A stretch of DNA of 64,000 nt from Alphaproteobacteria bacterium (GTDB taxonomy: Bacteria; Pseudomonadota; Alphaproteobacteria; Rs-D84): assembly GCA_017520675.1 (NCBI GenBank), contig JAFXFG010000011.1, forward strand, positions 469 to 64,468, written 5' to 3'. Shown here piece by piece: positions 1,864-51,370 of the stretch; within the stretch, counting starts at the first letter, position 1, and every line of letters begins with the position of its first letter. The notes beneath the pieces were generated by a model. That model was not told the origin of the DNA. It worked only from the letters and a program-made list of their open reading frames with translations, and searched no databases. A program made the translations under genes and the position numbers.

Positions 1864-2160
1864 ATGAAACAGCAAGTTTTAAAAGCATTAGCAAATCCTG
1901 CACTTCTTTTTTATGTGCCTTATTCACTGGCAGTGATTAATTTTGCTGTGCAGTTCATTATTTATATGATTTTGTTCATAGGTTCTTTGATTGTTTCAAA
2001 GGGTACAAACCCAATTAGTCCTTTGTTCTTTCTGCTGTCGGTTATTGGGGTACATATGTTTATGATGTTGTTCGCAAAAAAAGACCCGCAATTAGGGCAG
2101 ATTGTGTCCGCTAAAATTCAATTGTTTAAAAAAAGAATTCCTAATAGGTTGGCTGCGTGA
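1864..2160 (+). CDS. virB3: type IV secretion system protein VirB3
   Basis: 98 aa, two TM segments, N-terminal L.ANPALLFYVPY motif like VirB3. Stop overlaps the virB4 start (TGATG). Confidence 0.75.
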   Translation: MKQQVLKALANPALLFYVPYSLAVINFAVQFIIYMILFIGSLIVSKGTNPISPLFFLLSVIGVHMFMMLFAKKDPQLGQIVSAKIQLFKKRIPNRLAA

Positions 2161-4595
2161 TGAATAATATAGAAAACTTTTTTAATTATTTCGCCGGTGG
2201 GGGTGTTACAATTACTATGACTGTTATGGTTATGGTGGTGGTCTTGGTCTTTATTTTGATGATGATGTATCTGCCAGTCTTGACAAGAAAAATATTCCCA
2301 AAGTTCGGTTATGCAAAATATGCAAACTATTTGCCGTTCGATACCGTTTATAATGATAATTCTTTGTCTATGACAGATGGCAGTTTGGTTAGAGTTTATA
2401 GAGTCGCAGGTCTACAGACTTCGTTGCAGGATGATAAAACAAAAGAAAAATTCTTGGATTTGCGCGCGCAATTGTTTAACCAAATTCGCGACCCAAATGT
2501 TGTATTGCGATTTTATATGATTCGTGATGCCGCAGATGATAATGCAAAGTATGAATTTAATCAGCAGACTTTACAGAGAATTTACGATAAATGGAAAGGA
2601 CAAGGGTTAAAAATTTTCTTGAATAATTATTATATCGTTTTGTCTGTCGCAGGAAATGATGCACGCGCAAAACTTAATCAATATGGTAATTATGTTGAAT
2701 CTATTTTGGCTGCATATAAACCAAAAGTTTTGCGTAATGATAATCTTGATAATATGGCAACATTTATTGCAAGAATTTTGTCGCCAATTTCAAAACCTGT
2801 GATAAAACGCGCCGATAATAATATCGCAAATTTAACAACTGTTGATGATGTGGAATTCTTGAAAGATGGTTTGGTGCGTTATATTAGTGGCGAAAATCAA
2901 TCGTTTGCAGCAATGCTGTCTTTTAAAATGTCGCCTGATTATTTAGATGAAGAATTCTTTGATACTGTTTCAACTATTCAGACAGAAATGATTTCTATGA
3001 ATGGGTTTAGAATAATGGGCGCCGCAGATATTCAATCGACTTTTAGACAGAAAAGAGCAGTGGTAGATGAAAAAAAACAAGATTCTACGGAAGAACAGAT
3101 TTTTCAGGCCGAAGGGGCAATGGATGAAAATGTTTCAGGTAATCAAAGTTTGGTTAATTATTATCCTTTGTTCATCTTGTTTGGGAAAACAAAAGAAGAA
3201 CTTAAAAAATATGTCGATGAATTTAGAAAAATTGCTGCTTCGTTCGGTATCGCCCCAGTTGTTGAAACATTTGCATCAAAAGTTTCTTGGTTTGCACAAA
3301 TTCCAGGATTTGATGTTTTCCCACGCAGTTTTAAATTATTGTCAAAAACAGCTGCAATCAGTATTCCTATGTCTTCGCAACCACGCGGTATAGAAAATTC
3401 TGATTGGGGGCAGGGGCCGCTGGTGGTGTTCCCAACTGCACAAGGTACACCGTATCAATTCCAATTCCATGTTTCTGATAAACCTGCCGCAGTTGGACAT
3501 ACACTTACAATTGGGCCAACAGGTGGGGGTAAGACAACATTGTTCTCGTTCTTGATAGCGCAGAGTTTAAGACATCAAAAACTAAAAGCCTTTTTCTTTG
3601 ATAGAAATAAAGGGGCCGAGATTTTTACACTGGCTGTTGGGGGCAAATATATAACAATGAATGGTAAAGAAAAAAATACGGCTTCTAATAAGGTTGAAGA
3701 AAGTTTCTTGACACATTTAAATCCACTTAAAATGCCGGATAGTGCCGCAAATCGTGCTTTCTTGCGCAGGTGGTTCGCAATTATTTCAAATCAAAATGAT
3801 ACACAGTCTGCTGATGAAATTGCAAGGGCGGTTTCTGTTAATTTTGATTATCTGGCCGATAAAGATAGATTGTTAAAAAATTTGTGGGAAAGTTGTTTTT
3901 CAGCATCAGGTAATATGAGAGGGGCTTTGAAAAAATGGATTGATCCTTTGCAGTATGGCGATATGTTTAATGAAGCCTCTGATACTTTGGATTTGAATTC
4001 AAGACTGACTACTTTTGATTTTACAGACATTTTACAAGATGAGGTTTTGTCGCCAGCAGTGATTTCTTATATTTTGCACAGAATTAATAATATTACTGTG
4101 TCCGGGGGAAATCCGTCTTTGATTATGATTGACGAAACTGCACCAATGTTGGAAAATAAGATGTTTAGAGATAATTTTATTACAGGGTTGCAAGAGGGTA
4201 GAAAAAATCGTCAGGCATATATGGTGGCTTTTCAACGCGCAAATGTTTTGGATAAACTTGGTATCGGTGATGTAGTGCGCGGTCAGGCACAGACTGTTTT
4301 GTTCTTTAGAAACCCAGCCGCAGATGCACGCGATTATGAACATTGGAATTTAAATCCGCTGGAAATGGCGTTTATACAAGGAAAAGCATATCCTAATTTG
4401 AAACGCGCAGTTTTGTTGTCAAGACCAGTTAATGGTGAATCTGTGATTTTGAATACAGAGTTGGGGGGACTGGGGAATTTGTTGCGACTGTTCGAATCTG
4501 GGCGGTCGTCTGTGCTGTTGGCAGAAGAATTGTATAAAATGTATGGCAGTAATTTCGTAAATGAATATTTAAAAAAACAAAGCGCGCTTGATTAA
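2157..4595 (+). CDS. virB4: type IV secretion system ATPase VirB4
   Basis: 812 aa. Walker A GPTGGGKTT, Walker B LIMIDETAP. Size and position after virB3. Confidence 0.9.
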   Translation: MMNNIENFFNYFAGGGVTITMTVMVMVVVLVFILMMMYLPVLTRKIFPKFGYAKYANYLPFDTVYNDNSLSMTDGSLVRVYRVAGLQTSLQDDKTKEKFLDLRAQLFNQIRDPNVVLRFYMIRDAADDNAKYEFNQQTLQRIYDKWKGQGLKIFLNNYYIVLSVAGNDARAKLNQYGNYVESILAAYKPKVLRNDNLDNMATFIARILSPISKPVIKRADNNIANLTTVDDVEFLKDGLVRYISGENQSFAAMLSFKMSPDYLDEEFFDTVSTIQTEMISMNGFRIMGAADIQSTFRQKRAVVDEKKQDSTEEQIFQAEGAMDENVSGNQSLVNYYPLFILFGKTKEELKKYVDEFRKIAASFGIAPVVETFASKVSWFAQIPGFDVFPRSFKLLSKTAAISIPMSSQPRGIENSDWGQGPLVVFPTAQGTPYQFQFHVSDKPAAVGHTLTIGPTGGGKTTLFSFLIAQSLRHQKLKAFFFDRNKGAEIFTLAVGGKYITMNGKEKNTASNKVEESFLTHLNPLKMPDSAANRAFLRRWFAIISNQNDTQSADEIARAVSVNFDYLADKDRLLKNLWESCFSASGNMRGALKKWIDPLQYGDMFNEASDTLDLNSRLTTFDFTDILQDEVLSPAVISYILHRINNITVSGGNPSLIMIDETAPMLENKMFRDNFITGLQEGRKNRQAYMVAFQRANVLDKLGIGDVVRGQAQTVLFFRNPAADARDYEHWNLNPLEMAFIQGKAYPNLKRAVLLSRPVNGESVILNTELGGLGNLLRLFESGRSSVLLAEELYKMYGSNFVNEYLKKQSALD

Positions 4596-4598
4596 TAA

Positions 4599-5216
4599 GT
4601 GATTAGATGTATCGCATTTTTATTGTTAGTTTTGTTTGTTAATCCAGTAATGGCGGCTGATTGTATAGGTGTTAAAATTAATCCAAAAGTTGAAATTTAT
4701 AAACCAGATTGGAAAAAGACTGTTGTGCAGCCGCGAACACCAATGAATTTGTGGCATGGTAATGTGGTGGCAACTTTGGTGGATAATTTTGATATTGTTG
4801 TTGATGTGAAACCTGTTAAAGACGGTTTGTGTGTGTTCTTGAAAAGTGTAGATGCAACGATTGGATATAACGATTTTACTGTGCAGATAGATATAAGGCA
4901 TACACCAGATACTTGTGCGTATAGGGCGGTGCTGAATCATGAAGATAAACATATAAATACTTATTTAAAAGTTATAGATGATTTTCAAAATGATTTGAGA
5001 AATTCTGTAATGTGGGCCGCAGATTCTGTGATGCCTGTATTTGTTAATAATAATGATGATGTGAATTCCGCAATCGATATGATTAATCAAGAATTACAAA
5101 GGCATCCTGATTTGATTCTGATTAAGCAAAAAATTAATGCCGCACAGGAAATTAGAAATAAACAGGTTGACCAACAGGAAGATGGAAGGGAATTAGAAAA
5201 GTGCTTCGTTAATTAA
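4599..5216 (+). CDS. exported HExxH-motif protein (possible small zinc peptidase)
   Basis: GTG start, signal peptide FLLLVLFVNPVMAA, motif LNHEDKH. Family assignment uncertain. Confidence 0.5.
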   Translation: MIRCIAFLLLVLFVNPVMAADCIGVKINPKVEIYKPDWKKTVVQPRTPMNLWHGNVVATLVDNFDIVVDVKPVKDGLCVFLKSVDATIGYNDFTVQIDIRHTPDTCAYRAVLNHEDKHINTYLKVIDDFQNDLRNSVMWAADSVMPVFVNNNDDVNSAIDMINQELQRHPDLILIKQKINAAQEIRNKQVDQQEDGRELEKCFVN

Positions 5217-19525: not shown

Positions 19526-21955
<2,430 letters not shown>

Positions 21956-22003
21956 TTGATTGGCGCAGGAATCCCCTGCGCCATTAAATAAAAAGGGTGA
22001 ATA

Positions 22004-22243
22004 ATGTCGAAGAAACAAGATTTGTTGGCAGAAAAAGAACGGTTGCAAAATGAATTAAGGGATTTAGGTAGTGTCGCAGAATCGCAAGTGTGGCACAAAA
22101 AAGCACGAATACAACAAATTGATGAGGAAATAAAAAAATTAGAAACAGGTCAATTTAATGCGGGCGCTGATAAATTAAAAGAAAAAATCCATCAGCAAGA
22201 TATGGAAAAAATGTTAGTGGCGCAGGGGCAGGGGCGTGATTGA
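22004..22243 (+). CDS. small coiled-coil protein, unknown function
   Basis: 79 aa, charged heptad-like sequence. Stop overlaps the next ATG (TGATG). Confidence 0.45.
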   Translation: MSKKQDLLAEKERLQNELRDLGSVAESQVWHKKARIQQIDEEIKKLETGQFNAGADKLKEKIHQQDMEKMLVAQGQGRD

Positions 22244-22923
22244 TGTGGTTCTCGCGTGATTGGTTCTTTGACTTAGATGCGACTTTGCGTGCGCAGGGGT
22301 TGGACAGTGATGCCCAAAGTTTTGATGAAATTTTGCAGAACCTGCGTGCGCGAAAAATCTATACCGCTGATGAATTTGCATCGCATTGTGCTTATGTGAT
22401 TTTGGCGGGTGGTTTCTCGCAAAAAACAGCAAAAAAAATTCATAAAAAAATTATGGATGTTTTGTTGTCTGTTGGTGCAGATTTTAATACCTTGATTCAG
22501 GTTTTTAATAATAAAAATAAAATTAAGGCCATTTGTGAAATTTGGGAAAATCGGCAGTCTTTGCGTGATAGGTATTATGCAATTAATGTACCAGTAGAAA
22601 GATTGAATTATTTGCAGACCCTGCCACATATCGGAAAAATTACTGCAAATCATTTGGCGCGAAATCTGGGTGAAGATGTTGTTAAATATGATATTTGGAT
22701 TCAGCGTCTGGGGGTTCTATACAGCGGTAATTCTGGGCTTTATCAAAATATAGATAACGCCAAACTGGATGAAGAAATAAAAAAATCTTGTGATGATATG
22801 TTTGCGCATTTGTGTCAAGAAACAGGACTGCCACGCGGATACATTGATGTAGTGTTATGGAAATCTTGTCAGGTAAAATTAATTTCTATGGATGATTACT
22901 TGCATAAACCGCCGGTCATGTAG
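22243..22923 (+). CDS. HhH-type DNA glycosylase-like protein
   Basis: ILAGGFSQKTAKKI and LPHIGKITANHLARNLG resemble the endonuclease III-superfamily helix-hairpin-helix. Confidence 0.4.
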   Translation: MWFSRDWFFDLDATLRAQGLDSDAQSFDEILQNLRARKIYTADEFASHCAYVILAGGFSQKTAKKIHKKIMDVLLSVGADFNTLIQVFNNKNKIKAICEIWENRQSLRDRYYAINVPVERLNYLQTLPHIGKITANHLARNLGEDVVKYDIWIQRLGVLYSGNSGLYQNIDNAKLDEEIKKSCDDMFAHLCQETGLPRGYIDVVLWKSCQVKLISMDDYLHKPPVM

Positions 22924-23005
22924 CGAGTAGTATACTCTCTTTGGTTTGTGCTGCGTACTCGTATCATATAAATTAATTTTGAAGTTGGTTGAGGTTGATA
23001 AAATT

Positions 23006-23668
23006 ATGAATGTTAGAATTGAAGAATCTTGGAAAAACGCATTAAGTGCAGAATTTGATAAGGATTATTTTATCAAGTTGACTGACTTTGTGCGTGGTGA
23101 ATATTTGTCAGGACAGATTGTTTATCCTGCACCACAAAATATATTTAATGCATTTGACTTGTGTCCGCTGGATAATGTTAAAGTGGTTATTATTGGACAA
23201 GACCCATATCATGAGCCAGGGCAGGCACATGGGCTTTGTTTTTCTGTGTTGCCACCAACGCCAGTACCACCAAGTTTGCAAAATATTTATAAAGAGATAG
23301 AATCTGATATTGGTCACCCAAGTATTACAAATGGGGATTTGACAGAATGGGCAAAGCAGGGGGTATTGTTGTTGAATTCTGTGTTAACTGTTCAGGCGCA
23401 TAAGGCGGCATCACATTCGGGGTGCGGGTGGGAAGAGTTTACAGATGCAGTAATGCGTGTGCTGAGTCAACGCGAAAATATAGTCTATATGCTGTGGGGC
23501 AGTTTTGCGCAAAAAAAAGCAAGCGTAATAAATGCAAATAAGAATCTGGTCTTGAAATGTGTACATCCGTCCCCGTTGTCTGCATATCGTGGATTCTTTG
23601 GGTGTCGGCATTTTAGTCAGGCAAATAATTATCTGATAAATTGTGGAAAAACACCGATTGAGTGGTGA
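23006..23668 (+). CDS. ung: uracil-DNA glycosylase
   Basis: ATG at 23006. GQDPYH, HGLCFSV and HPSPLSA motifs. Confidence 0.92.
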   Translation: MNVRIEESWKNALSAEFDKDYFIKLTDFVRGEYLSGQIVYPAPQNIFNAFDLCPLDNVKVVIIGQDPYHEPGQAHGLCFSVLPPTPVPPSLQNIYKEIESDIGHPSITNGDLTEWAKQGVLLLNSVLTVQAHKAASHSGCGWEEFTDAVMRVLSQRENIVYMLWGSFAQKKASVINANKNLVLKCVHPSPLSAYRGFFGCRHFSQANNYLINCGKTPIEW

Positions 23669-23704
23669 TGTTTTTGAGAAAATAAAAAATATCTAAAAAT
23701 AGTC

Positions 23705-23733
23705 TTGCATAATTTTTTTAAAGTGGTTATCAT
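23705..23733 (+). promoter_or_regulatory. putative sigma70 promoter of leader B
   Basis: TTGCAT - 17 nt - TATCAT. Confidence 0.5.
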
Positions 23734-23738
23734 TGAAA

Positions 23739-24001
23739 ATGAATCCAGTGGAAGTTGGGTTCGGGGCTGTCGTAAGCCTTGTTCTGTTCGGTGCGAATGT
23801 AGACGTATCGTAATTTTTAGATATTGTCCCACTGTTCGTATCGCTTGTTTGTGTTGTATCCCCATGGCTAATGGAATTATTGTTAGTCGAGGGGTTGATC
23901 ACTGTAAAATAGAGATAAGTTATCTCGAAGGTGACAGGGTCAATAACAGAATGATTTACGAACTCCTCGACCGCTAAGATTTCCATAGCGGTTTATTTTT
24001 T
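23739..24001 (+). promoter_or_regulatory. copy B of the 3-copy structured leader, ending in an intrinsic terminator 24 nt before the ATG
   Basis: GGTTCGGGG at 23758. Helices CAGTGG(23746)/CCACTG(23829) and GTCGAGGGG(23886)/CTCCTCGAC(23963). Terminator ACCGCTA(23970)/TAGCGGT(23986) plus T-run. All ORFs across it are frame-inconsistent with copy A. Confidence 0.5.
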
Positions 24002-24024
24002 AACAATAAAGAAAGGAAAGGGAT

Positions 24025-24855
24025 ATGAACAAATCAAGAATATTGACATTTTTATCGACGTCGGCTGCGGTGTTTGCATTTGCGGGGGGGGCAGCATTCG
24101 CTGCTGCTGATGGTGGAGATCCAGTAGCTGTAGTGTATGGGACATATAATCCTACGTGTACTAAATTTACTGATGATATAACTGTAAATTTTTTCGGATA
24201 CACATCTGCAGGTACTTTTGGTAAGGTTTATTCTACCACTATTAGTAGATCGAGCAATAATTGGGCTAGCGGGGCGACTTTGACTACTCTAGCGGCACCT
24301 GTAGCTAAACCAGTTACAGTTGGCAGTGTTAGTTATACAAAAGGGGTGACCCCAAGGGGCGCGGTACTGTATTCGGTTGGTGGTTCTGAACCAACAGCAG
24401 TTGATTATTCAAGTAATGCAGGTTTGATTGTAGGGGCAACGACTGCTGTTTGGGATGTAGATTCGATGGTTACGGCAGATGATACGGGTCTTGCTGAAGA
24501 TATGTCGTTTGGTTTTGGGGCAGGTGGTACTTTTCCTACTATTCCTACCGATCTCTTTGATACAGTAGGAGAAAGTAATACTCTTGTTTTAAATTATATA
24601 ATTCCATATGCTGCAAGCTGTTTAGATGTGGATCATGGTGAGTGTACCCTGACTATCGGTGTGCAACAGGGGTCAACAAAATATCCTGGTGCTGCTGTCT
24701 ATCATAATTCTTGTGATGATGGGTATTCGGGTAGCAATTTTGGTGGTAGTACTTTGGCATGTGGAACAGCTGGGTCGTGTGGTGACATTCAAGCAAGTGT
24801 CCAAGGAGCAGCTCCATCACAATCTACAACACCGAATTATGCTAATGCTAACTAA
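24025..24855 (+). CDS. exported surface-type protein, unknown family
   Basis: Signal peptide ..AVFAFAGGAAFAA. Gly/Thr/Ser-rich, Cys only in the C-terminal third (..HNSCDDGYSG..). RBS GAAAGGAAAGGG. Confidence 0.7.
   Translation: MNKSRILTFLSTSAAVFAFAGGAAFAAADGGDPVAVVYGTYNPTCTKFTDDITVNFFGYTSAGTFGKVYSTTISRSSNNWASGATLTTLAAPVAKPVTVGSVSYTKGVTPRGAVLYSVGGSEPTAVDYSSNAGLIVGATTAVWDVDSMVTADDTGLAEDMSFGFGAGGTFPTIPTDLFDTVGESNTLVLNYIIPYAASCLDVDHGECTLTIGVQQGSTKYPGAAVYHNSCDDGYSGSNFGGSTLACGTAGSCGDIQASVQGAAPSQSTTPNYANAN
24084..24091 (+). repeat. G8 homopolymer inside the signal-peptide coding region
   Basis: tttgcGGGGGGGGcagc, read directly from the sequence. Exceptional in this AT-rich context. Confidence 0.9.
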
Positions 24856-25195: not shown

Positions 25196-25753
25196 TTAGA
25201 AATTGTATGATATGCCGAGACCATAAAATGCGTACGAGTTATTTTCTGGGGCGGTGTTGCCGTTTGACATGTGTTGCATAAAGGCCTCAATTGATGTACA
25301 TTCTGATATGCGATAGCCACCACCTAGTTTGAAACCAAATACCAGTTTTGAACCAATGCGGGCATTCTGTTGCGCCTGCATGCCAATGCCCAGACCAATA
25401 AAGGTGTACCAGTTATTACCATACAGTGGGATTACATCTTCGCTGAGCATCGCAATCGGTATAGAATAGTCGTCCCAATTCCAACCATATTTCTCGCCCC
25501 GTCCAACGTTTATAATCGCACTGATTGATTTGCGCGCAGGTAATCTGAAAAATGTCGTTGGCTGAGAATACTGAAACTGAAACATCGTATATGGTACAAA
25601 TTGCGATGGTGGTGGAATCAGAAAACCACTGTTTACACCGGCGCCAACATTAAAAGATATTTGATTGGTGTAACCGTTAAAAAACGGGTTGATTTCACCG
25701 TTTGCATAGGTGCAAAAAAGTAAAAGTGGCAAAATTGTAACGGTTTTTCTCAT
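25196..25753 (-). CDS. PagL-like lipid A deacylase paralog
   Basis: ATG at 25753 gives signal peptide MRKTVTILPLLLFCTYANG. HMSNG motif. C-terminal GISYNF. Confidence 0.6.
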   Translation of the reverse strand: MRKTVTILPLLLFCTYANGEINPFFNGYTNQISFNVGAGVNSGFLIPPPSQFVPYTMFQFQYSQPTTFFRLPARKSISAIINVGRGEKYGWNWDDYSIPIAMLSEDVIPLYGNNWYTFIGLGIGMQAQQNARIGSKLVFGFKLGGGYRISECTSIEAFMQHMSNGNTAPENNSYAFYGLGISYNF

Positions 25754-25892
25754 AGTTTGTATTATAGCATAAATAAAGTGTTTGTTCAAAGCGGATTATT
25801 AAAAAATATAATTATTTTTAACATGAATAAAATCCAATTAGTTTTTCTTTTGCTTGCAATTAAAAAAATGTCTGTTATAATCAGTGCCGTTT

Positions 25893-48976: not shown

Positions 48977-51370
48977 GTGAAAATGTTTAAAAAAATAATT
49001 GGGAATGTGCGTTTTTTCCTAAAGCCAAAGGAATTCTGTAAAAAAATTGGTTTAAAATCGCGTGCAAATATTGTTGATTTAGTAACTTTTCCTGAGGAGG
49101 CGCGAAAATATATTTATGTGTCGTCTGATATTAAACAAAAATATAAGAGAATTGCTATTTTTGCGTCTTTTTCGTTTGATGGAACAATTCCTGATTATGT
49201 AATTTATTATTTGAGTGAGTTAAAGAAGGTTTGTGATGGAATAGTCTTTTTTGCTGATAATCCTGTAATTTTGTCAGAGATAGAAAAGATAAAACATCTT
49301 GTAATTTATGCGCAGTTTGAAAGACATAATGAATATGATTTTGGATCGTATAAACGTGGATATATGTGGTTGAAGCAAAAGGGGATGTTAGATCAATGTG
49401 AAGAGTTGTTAGTTTGTAATGATTCTTGTTATGGGCCGGTTTATCCATTAAGTAATGTTTTTGATCAAATGGATGTTAGATGTTGTGATTTTTGGGGGAT
49501 GATACAAAATGATGATGTTAATTATCACCTGCAGTCGTGGTTTTATGTTTTCAGAAAAAGTGTTTTGAAATCTGGTTTATTAGGTGATTTTTTAAAACAG
49601 GTTAAGCATCAAGATGATTTTTGGGATTATGTTTTTAAATATGAATTTCAATTGACTAAATTTTTAATTGATAAAGGTTTTTGTGCAGATGCTTATATGG
49701 GGTTAGGGCTTAAAAGATTCGAAAGTGCTTATCAAAAAAGTGGAAATCGTAATATAACTGTATTTCCGCTTACTCTAATCAAGGATTATAAATTACCGTT
49801 TATAAAAGTAAAATGTTTTAGTTGTGGTTTTAAACATTATTTGGAAGAGCAGCCACTGAATGTTTTAGGTTTTTTAAAAAGAATAAATCCAGAATTGAAT
49901 AATTGTATAATAAGAGATTTGGCTCGAAGAGATGTTCTTAATGGAATTTGTGAAAGAGATATTGATTTGCAAATTCAAAAGCATGATATAATTTCTTTTG
50001 ATATATTTGATACTTTGTTAATACGTCCGTATGTCAAACCAACGGATTTGTTTTGGCATTTAGAAAAAATTTATAATATTCCTGGTTTTGCCGAGGCGCG
50101 TATTGCCGCAGAATTGTATGCGCGAGAAAAAACGAGTAAGAAAGACGTTACGCTTGATGAAATATATGAAGTTTTATTGCCGAAATATCAAAAAGCTAAG
50201 GCGAAAGAATTAAAAATGGAAGAAAAATCTTTGAGAATAAATCCTTTGATATTTAAAGCCTATCAAAAGGCTGTAAGGCAAAAGAAAACTATTTTGATTG
50301 TGTCGGATATGTATTTGCCATCTAGCTTTTTAATAAAGGTTTTGAAACGAAATGGTGTTAATGTTTTTGATAGGATATATGTGTCTTGCGAGTATAATAA
50401 AACTAAGGCTGATGGTTCTTTGTTTGAGCAGGTGTTAACAGATTTTTCTGTTAATCCACGAAATATATTACATATTGGTGATAATGAGCATAGTGATGTA
50501 TATATGCCAAGAAGATATGATATAGATAGTTTTTGTGTGTCTAAATATATTGATTTGTTTTTTGCTTGGTATGGAAATGCAAAATATAAAAATTTTTATG
50601 AACAAAAATCAGATTTTATGCGCAGTTATTTGGTTTCATTGATGGCTCAAAATCAACTAAATACAGAAATGTCGTATTGGCAGCAGGTTGGTTATAATTT
50701 GGCAGGACCATTAGGTTTGGGATATGTTCAACTGATATTAAAGGAAGTAAAGTTGAATGATATTGATACTTTGTTATTTGTTTCTAGGGATGGTTATTTG
50801 TTGCAAAAAGTCTATAATAAGATTTGTGAAAAGCCGGTCGCAAATACTTACATATATGCACCAAGAATATTAAATTTAAAATTGTTTGGCGATTATGCTA
50901 ATCAGCCAGAATATTTACGGGCATATATGGATATGTTAAAAGGTGTTTGTTTGAAAAATGAAAATGTCGATTGTAAAAAAATGGATGATTTTATTCATAT
51001 GTATAATGATGAAATTGTTGATTGGCATAAAAAAAATAAAAAAGACTATATTAGTTACATTAAGTCGTTAAATATTTCGGGAAAGAATATAGCGTCTGTT
51101 GATATGACTACAGGGGCTTATACGTCCCAGAAAATACTTCAAAGAATTTTTGATGATAGATATAAAATGTCTTTTTATAGTGCGTGTTTTCGAAAAACAC
51201 AGGAATTTAAGCATGTGTCGTATTTGAAAAAAGAAATCCTTCCTGATGTGCAGGAGTGTATAATTAATATTATGGAATTGTTAATTACTGCCCCAGAACC
51301 GCCGGTTGTTGATATCAAAAATAAAAACCTGTGTATAAGGATTTTAATGCCTATGATGAGGAACGTATAA
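48977..51370 (+). CDS. RgpF-like glycosyltransferase fused to a HAD-like domain (possibly frameshifted at its 3' end)
   Basis: IAIFASFSFDG..YYLSEL, HNEYDFGSYKRGY (RgpF). SFDIFDTLLIRP (HAD motif I). GTG start behind TAAGGAG. Confidence 0.7.
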   Translation: MKMFKKIIGNVRFFLKPKEFCKKIGLKSRANIVDLVTFPEEARKYIYVSSDIKQKYKRIAIFASFSFDGTIPDYVIYYLSELKKVCDGIVFFADNPVILSEIEKIKHLVIYAQFERHNEYDFGSYKRGYMWLKQKGMLDQCEELLVCNDSCYGPVYPLSNVFDQMDVRCCDFWGMIQNDDVNYHLQSWFYVFRKSVLKSGLLGDFLKQVKHQDDFWDYVFKYEFQLTKFLIDKGFCADAYMGLGLKRFESAYQKSGNRNITVFPLTLIKDYKLPFIKVKCFSCGFKHYLEEQPLNVLGFLKRINPELNNCIIRDLARRDVLNGICERDIDLQIQKHDIISFDIFDTLLIRPYVKPTDLFWHLEKIYNIPGFAEARIAAELYAREKTSKKDVTLDEIYEVLLPKYQKAKAKELKMEEKSLRINPLIFKAYQKAVRQKKTILIVSDMYLPSSFLIKVLKRNGVNVFDRIYVSCEYNKTKADGSLFEQVLTDFSVNPRNILHIGDNEHSDVYMPRRYDIDSFCVSKYIDLFFAWYGNAKYKNFYEQKSDFMRSYLVSLMAQNQLNTEMSYWQQVGYNLAGPLGLGYVQLILKEVKLNDIDTLLFVSRDGYLLQKVYNKICEKPVANTYIYAPRILNLKLFGDYANQPEYLRAYMDMLKGVCLKNENVDCKKMDDFIHMYNDEIVDWHKKNKKDYISYIKSLNISGKNIASVDMTTGAYTSQKILQRIFDDRYKMSFYSACFRKTQEFKHVSYLKKEILPDVQECIINIMELLITAPEPPVVDIKNKNLCIRILMPMMRNV

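Follow-up and report, generated by a model that had tools for sequence, protein, structure and literature searches.

The 64,000-nucleotide (nt) stretch of DNA analysed here (the window), from contig JAFXFG010000011.1 of an Alphaproteobacteria bacterium of the Rs-D84 lineage (assembly GCA_017520675.1), poses the question of what lies at positions 23705–24024, where a gene for an exported protein is preceded by a long stretch with its own promoter and its own terminator. Comparison with relatives indicates that this stretch, copy B, belongs to a real and apparently undescribed family of leader RNAs located before surface-protein and glycan genes, and that the family is an expanded variant of a poorly understood RNA fold. 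The leader probably acts in cis, as a riboswitch-like ON-type switch that controls transcription attenuation and may respond to a small-molecule effector.

All features of copy B lie on the plus strand. A sigma-70-type promoter, read from the sequence, occupies 23705–23733 and consists of a −35 box TTGCAT (23705–23710), a 17-nt spacer and a −10 box TATCAT (23728–23733). The predicted transcription start, ∼7 nt past the −10 box, is the first base of hairpin P1, and the GC-enriched stretch starts 7 nt past the same box. At the other end an intrinsic terminator spans 23969–24000, its stem formed by 23969/23970–23976 with 23986–23992/23993 and its T-run reaching 24000; the core arms are ACCGCTA (23970–23976) and TAGCGGT (23986–23992), 24 nt before the ATG at 24025. 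An automatic terminator scan missed this hairpin because its loop measures 9 nt. Promoter and terminator had both been described in an earlier note on this DNA and both are present as described. The Shine–Dalgarno sequence (AAGGAAAGGGA) and the regulated gene follow at 24012–24855, the open reading frame (ORF; 24025–24855) encoding 276 amino acids (aa) with an N-terminal signal peptide and no Pfam family. The window is also filed in ENA as scaffold_107 of ERZ28653940, a metagenomic contig, and leader and gene are identical in eight other assemblies. Inside this ORF a weak partial match to the family profile (24327–24359, nhmmer E = 0.003, model positions 140–173) is probably due to chance.

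The element recurs within the window. The motif GGTTCGGGG-N8-RGCC occurs at exactly three sites in the 64 kb (1150, 23758 and 48759), all on the plus strand; ∼0.43 matches would be expected by chance even with two mismatches, and none of 100 shuffles reaches three. A family nhmmer profile applied to the window recovers three copies only (E = 4e-39 for copy B, 1e-37 for copy C and 6e-36 for copy A), with folding z-scores against shuffles of −5.7, −5.9 and −3.1 for B, C and A, respectively. Motif and profile therefore find exactly the three copies that had been proposed, except that copy A, which covers positions 2–189 of the 240-position model, is a truncated relic.

Beyond the window, pattern scans of genomes and metagenomes yield more than 200 homologues in total. 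A first scan, of viral contigs, found one true homologue amid 17 chance matches, the latter on high-GC contigs, after which the pattern was tightened; the tightened pattern, applied to one genome per species, finds at least 112 loci. A second, independent pattern built on three motifs of the 3′ domain only, with helices P1, P2, P5 and CL left unconstrained, finds at least 120 loci in metagenomes. Among the matches listed, the profile confirms 117 of the 120 metagenome loci, all but three of the genome-scan loci lie on low-GC contigs, and the titled records are nearly all Alphaproteobacteria or Candidatus Enterousia metagenome-assembled genomes (MAGs) from animal gut. The MAGs derive from the gut of goat, sheep, deer, buffalo, horse, mouse, chicken and human, and the few contigs in bins labelled otherwise probably reflect mis-binning. 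There are several copies per genome, and in RGIG3039 at least 11. Candidatus Enterousia belongs to the uncultured order Rs-D84 and has a genome below about 1 Mb; these bacteria have neither a tricarboxylic acid cycle nor respiration nor the standard transporters, and are proposed to depend on partner cells (PMC12306168). The true homologue on a ‘viral’ contig (L017 225–6163, IMG/VR contig IMGVR_UViG_3300029904_000303) is the only one of its kind and precedes an exported protein. It lies directly downstream of an RVT_1 reverse transcriptase gene (3772–4746), with a large serine recombinase gene (225–1844) and a CoiA-like gene nearby, a setting that may represent a retroelement, a context like that of diversity-generating retroelements, or an integrated element.

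The family has a consistent layout. In 72 non-redundant copies the promoter profile comprises a −35 box TTnnnn, a 17-nt spacer and a −10 box TATAAT at a fixed distance from P1; the −10 box ends 7 nt ahead of P1, which places the expected start of the transcript at the structured element. Elements are 198–266 nt long (median 240), and their 46% G+C contrasts with 36% G+C for the window. A terminator hairpin and U-tract directly follow the 3′ strand of helix CL in 72 of 73 representatives. A co-oriented ORF, mostly with a Shine–Dalgarno sequence, is found in 103 of about 110 copies and starts at a median of 47 nt past CL, only about 20–30 nt past the T-run. This gap is too small for a second promoter, so that the downstream gene would have to depend on read-through.

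Might the conserved stretch nevertheless be a gene? Two ORFs do overlap copy B, one of 97 aa on the minus strand (23693–23986) and one of 90 aa on the plus strand, and public assemblies call the former as a gene. The earlier statement that the stretch holds no credible ORF needs amending to that extent, although coding is rejected for the family as a whole. About 80% of 147 members lack a frame open for at least 70 codons on either strand, 1- and 2-nt indels fall between conserved blocks, as had been noticed on a smaller scale when the conservation was first called non-coding, and substitutions are compensatory for base pairs. There is practically no chance that the element is protein-coding; the 97-aa hypothetical protein antisense to the leader is likely a systematic mis-annotation at every copy, and public assemblies now wrongly list the leader as a hypothetical protein.

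The structure of the RNA was examined in two alignments. A2 comprises 74 representatives from the genome scan; A4 consists of 72 metagenome representatives and one reference sequence, collected without forcing the motifs under test. For the nested structure and pseudoknot together, 93.3% of cells are paired in A2, with double changes at 24 of 42 pairs, and 91.0% in A4, with double changes at 35 of 55. The observed values are reached by none of 500 shuffles on any measure, and when the 3′ partners are slid by 1–3 columns pairing drops to 30–50%. Covariation thus supports nine helices, the pseudoknot included, and the conserved RNA first suspected from three copies is borne out beyond the window.

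P1 is a 9-bp hairpin (23741–23762 in copy B, from the pair map and family covariation) capped by a GGAA tetraloop (23750–23753); it is 93–97% paired with compensatory changes, and its cap conforms to GNRA in 107 of 135 members. Its loop was also considered as a CsrA-type GGA loop, a reading rejected on account of GAGA and GCGA loops, which fit GNRA. A second covarying helix had been proposed between CAGAT and ATCTG in copy A and CAGTGG and CCACTG in copy B; this pairing is unsupported and is rejected because its 5′ bases form the GNRA-capped, covarying P1. Strand G1 and hairpin P2 (GGGGCUGUCGUAAGCCU) come next at 23763–23779, with the P2 stem formed by 23764–23767 and 23776–23779. In the family P2 (GGGC/GCCY) is 97.9% paired, and in A4 A-U and U-A replacements occur at 38:50 and 40:49; two divergent copies, L095 and L119, have such replacements as well. 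The P2 loop pairs through six of its bases (UCGUAA, 23770–23775) with a tail (UUACGA, 23956–23961) located just before a conserved AAC. This helix, PK, is 97.5–98.9% paired, with four pair types at each of three pairs.

Long-range helix P3 joins 23781–23788 to 23945–23952, its 3′ strand lying beside that of PK within 23945–23961, and has double changes at 8 of 8 pairs in A2 and 7 of 8 in A4. It encloses P4, an arm at 23789–23843 (CGGUGC...GUAUCG, from RNAfold). In A4 pairing across the outer six pairs of P4 amounts to 91%, and double changes occur at three of the six. The middle domain exists in two forms: class I, present in copies A and B, reads YCGGUGC...CAUCGUUAAUCCG...GCAYCG, and class II, present in copy C, has two different hairpins instead. 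The class I domain of copy B is a long arm with a conserved CGUUAAUCCG loop; that of class II in copy C (48791–48842) is composed of a variable hairpin and a GGGCGCG...GCGUCUUUUAUU hairpin, with GAAUCCGC before it. An AAUCCG motif is common to these otherwise unrelated classes. Further downstream, hairpin P6/P7 (23896–23942), which covaries, carries a conserved GUAAAAUAG/GAAGG internal loop in copy B and, in the family, the conserved asymmetric internal loop UAUAMAAYA/GAAA. Small helix H pairs GGGUCA (23937–23942) with UGAUUU (23952–23957); its family form, GAAUCA/UGAUUU, is pairable in about 95% of cells and shows few double changes. The pairs of the terminator also covary in A4.

The core of the argument is an exchange of partners among four strands. 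The 3′ domain of copy B (23886–23971) is bounded by helix CL, in which strand G2 (GUCGAGGGG, 23886–23894) pairs with its downstream partner C2 (CUCCCCGAC, 23963–23971); P6/P7 and H lie inside it. All 665 cells of CL (GUCG(G/A)GG with CC(C/U)CGAC) are paired in A2, and 98.3% of cells are in A4, with double changes. Pair 197:278, just outside the G-run, occurs as A-U (39), G-U (21), U-A (9) and G-C (2), copy B being an A-U variant, and in L046 CL is compensated at three consecutive pairs. The long covarying helix of the earlier note is therefore confirmed as a helix, whereas its place in the fold is different: CL crosses P3 and is for that reason a pseudoknot helix rather than a closing stem, and it competes with P5 for GUCGGGG. 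P5 pairs the same G2 strand with an upstream strand, C1 (CCCUGAC/GUCGGGG), so that the two partners are mutually exclusive. P5 is 96.9% paired in A4, three pairs having double changes, and compensated variants include L102, in which a paired insertion lengthens the helix, and L119, which is altered on both strands. In copy B the RNAfold hairpin occupies 23860–23894 and joins C1 (CCCC 23860–23863 plus an inserted arm) to G2.

The first strand, G1, has a choice as well: it is the 5′ strand of P2 or the partner of the CCCC core of C2 in an alternative helix, ALT (in copy B, GGGG 23763–23766 with CCUC 23965–23968). ALT is 95.2% paired; pair 35:283 is G-C in 58 sequences and A-U in 6, and six sequences, belonging to about three lineages, combine G-to-A in G1 with C-to-U in C2. 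RNAalifold independently picks the nested OFF fold, ALT included. A fold with ALT alone in place of P2 and CL was considered and rejected, as L046 and L095 break ALT while keeping P2 and CL by compensation; ALT is retained within the alternative fold.

C2 is in turn linked to the terminator. The earlier proposal that the long helix shares bases with the terminator, in the layout of a riboswitch or antiterminator, finds ample support: in 71 of 73 representatives the first base of the terminator stem is either the G or the A of the GAC with which CL ends, and in copy B the basal GAC of the terminator is also the last three bases of CL. The median terminator has a free energy of −10.7 kcal/mol, reduced to −6.0 kcal/mol without GAC, when the stem no longer abuts the U-tract. 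Summed helix energies, loop and pseudoknot terms ignored, are −28.6 kcal/mol for the OFF fold and −28.4 kcal/mol for the ON fold. Overlapping strands and nearly equal energies are, as modelled, the anatomy of a terminator/antiterminator switch.

In the mechanism proposed, the sigma-70-type promoter would start the transcript at P1, and the ∼240-nt leader would fold into P1, P2, P3 enclosing P4, and a 3′ domain that resembles the RNA family sRNA-Xcc1, with the intrinsic terminator coming about 25 nt ahead of the Shine–Dalgarno sequence. In the fully nested OFF fold, G2 would pair with C1 in P5, the anti-antiterminator, and G1 with the CCCC core of C2 in ALT, alongside PK and the full terminator; the GAC at the 3′ end of C2 would be free, the base of the terminator would form, and transcription would stop. 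In the pseudoknotted ON fold G1 would close P2, the loop of which would pair with the tail through PK as an H-type pseudoknot, and G2 would pair with all nine bases of C2 as CL, the closing helix of an Xcc1-like three-way junction. The basal 2–3 bp of the terminator at the U-tract would thereby be withheld, allowing RNA polymerase to read into the surface-protein gene. The effector may shift the balance by stabilizing the compact, pseudoknotted ON fold.

Several points weigh against this mechanism. Pseudoknot and loop penalties are left out of the energy comparison, and both folds are computational. CL and the terminator overlap by only 2–4 nt, so that a shortened CL could coexist with a full terminator. 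The independent changes in ALT are few, about three lineages, and the covariation of P5 is modest. More generally, counts of covarying cells overstate the number of independent events, owing to a narrow taxonomic range and to concerted evolution among copies, of which 27 pairs are at least 95% identical. With respect to the effector, the surface-protein regulon points to no particular metabolite. Moreover, the H loop and the joiner, conserved and unpaired in sRNA-Xcc1, are here variable and paired to the 5′ domain, which probably limits any ligand pocket to the P6 internal loop and the junctions.

The concerted evolution merits attention in its own right. In the 27 copy pairs that are at least 95% identical over about 245 nt, both flanks are unrelated. 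Near-identical leaders (97–99% over about 245 nt; L029, L037, L041, L095, L099, L124, L137 and others) occur in different species-level genomes before unrelated genes, and the homology between them begins about 10 nt ahead of the −35 box and ends with the T-run of the terminator. Cassettes so similar between unrelated flanks suggest duplication or gene conversion, and on these comparisons the leader behaves as a portable promoter-leader cassette. A cassette of this sort might be constitutive and sense no signal, serving to stabilize or insulate the mRNA or to impose a fixed attenuation, with the alternative pairings as mere folding intermediates. The recurrence of the segment from about −45 to the T-run at such identity before unrelated genes and the small overlap between CL and terminator are compatible with this idea. 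Mutual complementarity is, however, preserved among four strands, compensatory changes being present in both of the alternative partners, and a strong terminator just before the Shine–Dalgarno sequence in 72 of 73 representatives would be costly and hard to explain without conditional read-through, which makes a constitutive cassette improbable.

The same multiplicity of near-identical copies with sharp boundaries might betray a selfish repeat, akin to miniature inverted-repeat transposable elements or repetitive extragenic palindromic sequences. Copy B moreover contains a 13-nt perfect inverted repeat, 23688–23700 with 23813–23825 (AATATCTAAAAAT/ATTTTTAGATATT), around the promoter, as might be expected of an invertible switch for phase variation. 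Orientation and spacing to the gene are fixed, though, and covariation at the RNA level is strong, neither of which favours a selfish repeat; copy B is alone among about 200 elements in having the 13-nt repeat, the longest repeat being typically 7 nt, as in shuffles, and all eight independent assemblies have the same orientation with no flipped form. A mobile or invertible element is accordingly a very remote prospect. The two arms of the repeat bracket the promoter and the P1–P3 part of copy B, the second arm lying within an AT-rich insertion in the P4 loop.

If the leader is a conditional switch, which genes does it serve, and what does it respond to? Among the 86 distinct ORFs collected downstream, heuristic calls assign a signal-peptide-like N-terminus to 62 and a lipobox to 16. 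Pfam recognizes few of them, the families being Autotransporter, OMP_b-brl, YadA_anchor, Opacity, Surface_Ag_2, OmpA_membrane, Flg_new repeats, RgpF, GT2 and GT-D. The downstream genes thus appear to encode mostly exported proteins (autotransporters, outer-membrane barrels, lipoproteins), together with glycosyltransferases. Surface proteins of Rs-D84 presumably serve attachment to, and exploitation of, partners or hosts. The placement of one RNA module before many surface genes, three copies in 64 kb and at least 11 in one MAG, suggests that a single RNA-based switch governs the cell surface of an organism with very few regulators.

Such a regulon fits a signalling molecule. A small ligand, either a metabolite or a second messenger, is a reasonable candidate for the effector, at somewhat under an even chance taken by itself; a protein or another macromolecule is a distinctly weaker candidate, and the absence of any dedicated effector, with attenuation being kinetic or constitutive, is weaker still. 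The macromolecular alternative nevertheless deserves careful weighing. The switch would be the same, and a dedicated antiterminator protein, a NusG paralogue, a transfer RNA (tRNA) or a trans-acting RNA would select the read-through fold. A regulon of surface-protein and polysaccharide genes, devoid of metabolic genes, resembles the regulons of RfaH and UpxY. RfaH with its ops element (JUMPStart) and UpxY-type systems combine a short DNA or RNA signal with a NusG paralogue in surface-polysaccharide operons, and the leader shares with them a position before cell-surface genes and a putative control of terminator read-through. The UAUAMAAYA/GAAA internal loop and the GNRA loop are possible sites of protein recognition, and the related sRNA-Xcc1 RNAs adjoin phage Q, antitermination and antirepressor genes. 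On the other hand, known protein-dependent targets (RAT, ANTAR, ops) are short and simple, whereas the leader maintains a large covarying fold of nine helices with two crossing interactions and a GNRA cap. The ops element GGCGGTAGnnTG is found in none of 201 elements, the window contains no candidate regulator gene linked to the leader, and genomes under 1 Mb have few regulators (PMC12306168). A macromolecular effector is on these grounds a minority view, although the most substantial of the alternatives considered.

The search for known relatives of the leader leads to one RNA family. Rfam 15 was searched with the window, copies A, B and C and 23 related loci, at gathering and permissive thresholds. 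Only tRNAs reach the gathering score in the window and related loci, which agrees with the earlier failure to match the element to a known riboswitch; copy B has no Rfam match at E up to 10. At permissive thresholds copy A, copy C and L029 give chance-level matches only, sRNA-Xcc1 (RF02221) aside, the sole non-tRNA family matched beyond chance. It matches nine elements at 32–46 bits: copy C (48861–48954) at 32.4 bits, L029 at 37.9 bits and 7 of 20 metagenome loci at 33.3–46.4 bits, below the gathering score of 53. The matches cover all 87 of the 87 model positions, always fall on the stretch from G2 to C2, and have E values down to 1e-5. No confident Rfam match refutes the earlier proposal, but this sub-threshold relation, which had been missed, is a genuine lead. 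In the reciprocal direction R1, a covariance model of the leader's 3′ domain, scores 68.2 bits on copy C, 63.2 on copy B and 28.9 on copy A (with helix H skipped in A); among sRNA-Xcc1 members it matches that of phage Aaphi23 at full length (35.4 bits, E = 5e-5) and gives no match at E up to 10 to the copy in the Stx phage P13374. The 3′ domain is probably a divergent relative of sRNA-Xcc1, or at least has the same fold, without being a member by the Rfam criterion.

The two RNAs have in common a three-way junction, a 9-bp GC-rich closing helix (GUCGGG.../...CCCGAC), a hairpin with an AAUACAAUA/GAA internal loop, a second small hairpin and a short joiner. They differ in several respects. sRNA-Xcc1 is a stand-alone RNA of ∼88 nt, whereas the module of the leader is internal to an RNA of 198–266 nt, the 5′ domain of which reaches the module at four sites, through pairing of C1 and G2, of G1 and C2, of P3 and the H loop, and of the P2 loop and the joiner. 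The leader has a separate intrinsic terminator that overlaps the closing helix, and it resides on chromosomal contigs of Rs-D84 MAGs, before a surface-protein regulon, whereas sRNA-Xcc1 occurs on integron cassettes, phages and islands. First cloned from an integron cassette of Xanthomonas campestris as an RNA of 88 nt (PMC2996969), sRNA-Xcc1 is described in the literature as a trans-acting, integron-encoded small RNA (sRNA); RF02221, in Rfam since release 11.0 (2012), is typed ‘Gene; sRNA’. A mechanism for it was not found in the literature searched. In the papers and records consulted, its members lie directly upstream of co-oriented genes, such as symE in Xanthomonas cassettes and an ORF6N gene in APSE phages. 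In Aaphi23 (L259 1497–1575) the co-oriented gene ant starts 39 nt downstream, and in P13374 (L260 1501–1566) a co-oriented ‘antitermination’ ORF starts about 40 nt downstream. This arrangement suggests that the known family may itself be cis-regulatory, and sRNA-Xcc1, widespread in phages and integrons, becomes open to a testable re-reading. In P13374 a 48-aa ‘antB2’ coding sequence is annotated over the sRNA-Xcc1 RNA.

The typing of RF02221 raises the possibility that the leaders, too, form an independent family of terminator-ended, trans-acting sRNAs and that their position before genes is incidental. Copy A stands alone between two terminators, and termination would free a ∼250-nt RNA from many near-identical loci, both in keeping with this idea. 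It sits poorly with the co-oriented ORF found downstream at a nearly constant, short distance and with the reliance of that gene on read-through; copy A is truncated, and sRNA-Xcc1 members are themselves placed about 40 nt upstream of co-oriented genes. An independent trans-acting sRNA is therefore quite improbable.

Precedents for a cis-acting switch are found among riboswitches, and the leader displays in silico two generic features of these: a covarying domain in the 5′ untranslated region and mutually exclusive terminator/antiterminator pairing. In ON-type transcriptional riboswitches such as the pbuE adenine and crcB fluoride switches, an aptamer helix or pseudoknot has its 3′ strand in common with the terminator. 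The leader resembles them in being structured from the transcription start, in the mutual exclusion of helix and terminator, in a decision taken just before the Shine–Dalgarno sequence, and in its conserved joining regions and pseudoknots. It differs in being larger than most aptamers, in employing four strands rather than two, and in a non-metabolic regulon from which no ligand can be deduced; no Rfam riboswitch model matches it. Cyclic di-GMP riboswitches (GEMM-I/II) occur in multiple copies per genome upstream of adhesin, surface-protein and exopolysaccharide genes, a likeness to the leader that is confined to the regulon, as there is no Rfam match to them in sequence or structure at E up to 10. 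Literature searches on the host, the motif and candidate riboswitches retrieved no description of the leader. A bolder suggestion, offered tentatively and doubtful as it stands, is that the leader constitutes a new riboswitch class with the sRNA-Xcc1 fold as its aptamer core, sensing a small signal such as a second messenger or a metabolite derived from the partner or host. Dozens of copies would then turn on a large part of the surface proteome (adhesins, outer-membrane proteins, lipoproteins, glycans) in these ultra-small gut Alphaproteobacteria that depend on partners, and the sRNA-Xcc1 RNAs of phages, integrons and islands would be cis-acting sensors in control of ant, symE and antiterminator genes rather than trans-acting sRNAs. 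For RNA biology the leader is of interest as an orphan switch of large size and good covariation, in which four strands exchange partners in an unusual way.

The two other copies in the window, both on the plus strand, illustrate different fates of the module. Copy C (48707–48971) is a full paralogue with a class II middle domain. Its promoter consists of TTGAAA (48707–48712), a 17-nt spacer and TAAAAT (48730–48735), followed by P1 (48742–48763), G1 and P2 (48764–48780) and PK (48771–48776 with 48930–48935). The remaining parts are P3 (48781–48790 with 48917–48926), the middle hairpins (48791–48842), P5 (48845–48870), CL (48862–48870 with 48937–48945), P6/P7 (48871–48909) and the terminator (48944–48963 plus T-run). 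The copy sits before an RgpF/HAD gene with its ATG at 48983. Copy A (1129–1330) is a 3′-truncated relic in which P1 (1133–1154), P2 (1156–1171), P5 (1247–1267) and P6/P7 (1269–1312) are intact. The 3′ strands of P3 and PK and most of C2 are deleted, CGACC at 1321–1325 being the sole remnant of C2, and there is neither an adjacent terminator nor a plus-strand gene downstream. Copy A is a decayed copy and not the equal of B and C. Its promoter-like region is intact, and a CA-rich unstructured spacer (1326–1365) follows the truncated leader; past it, at ∼1399–1421, lies a bidirectional terminator shared with the bL36 gene on the minus strand (1427–1555). Copy A could still give rise to an orphan RNA of ∼290 nt.

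The wider gene context of the window includes rmlD (213–1043), a gene for a VirB4/TrbE-like type IV secretion ATPase (2157–4595) and, at 19556–23668, gyrB followed by two unknown ORFs and a gene of the UDG family. A PagL-like lipid A deacylase is encoded on the minus strand at 25196–25789, and the RgpF/HAD gene behind copy C (48983–51370) specifies a protein resembling those of rhamnan synthesis. Several envelope and glycan genes are thus clustered around the leaders of the window.

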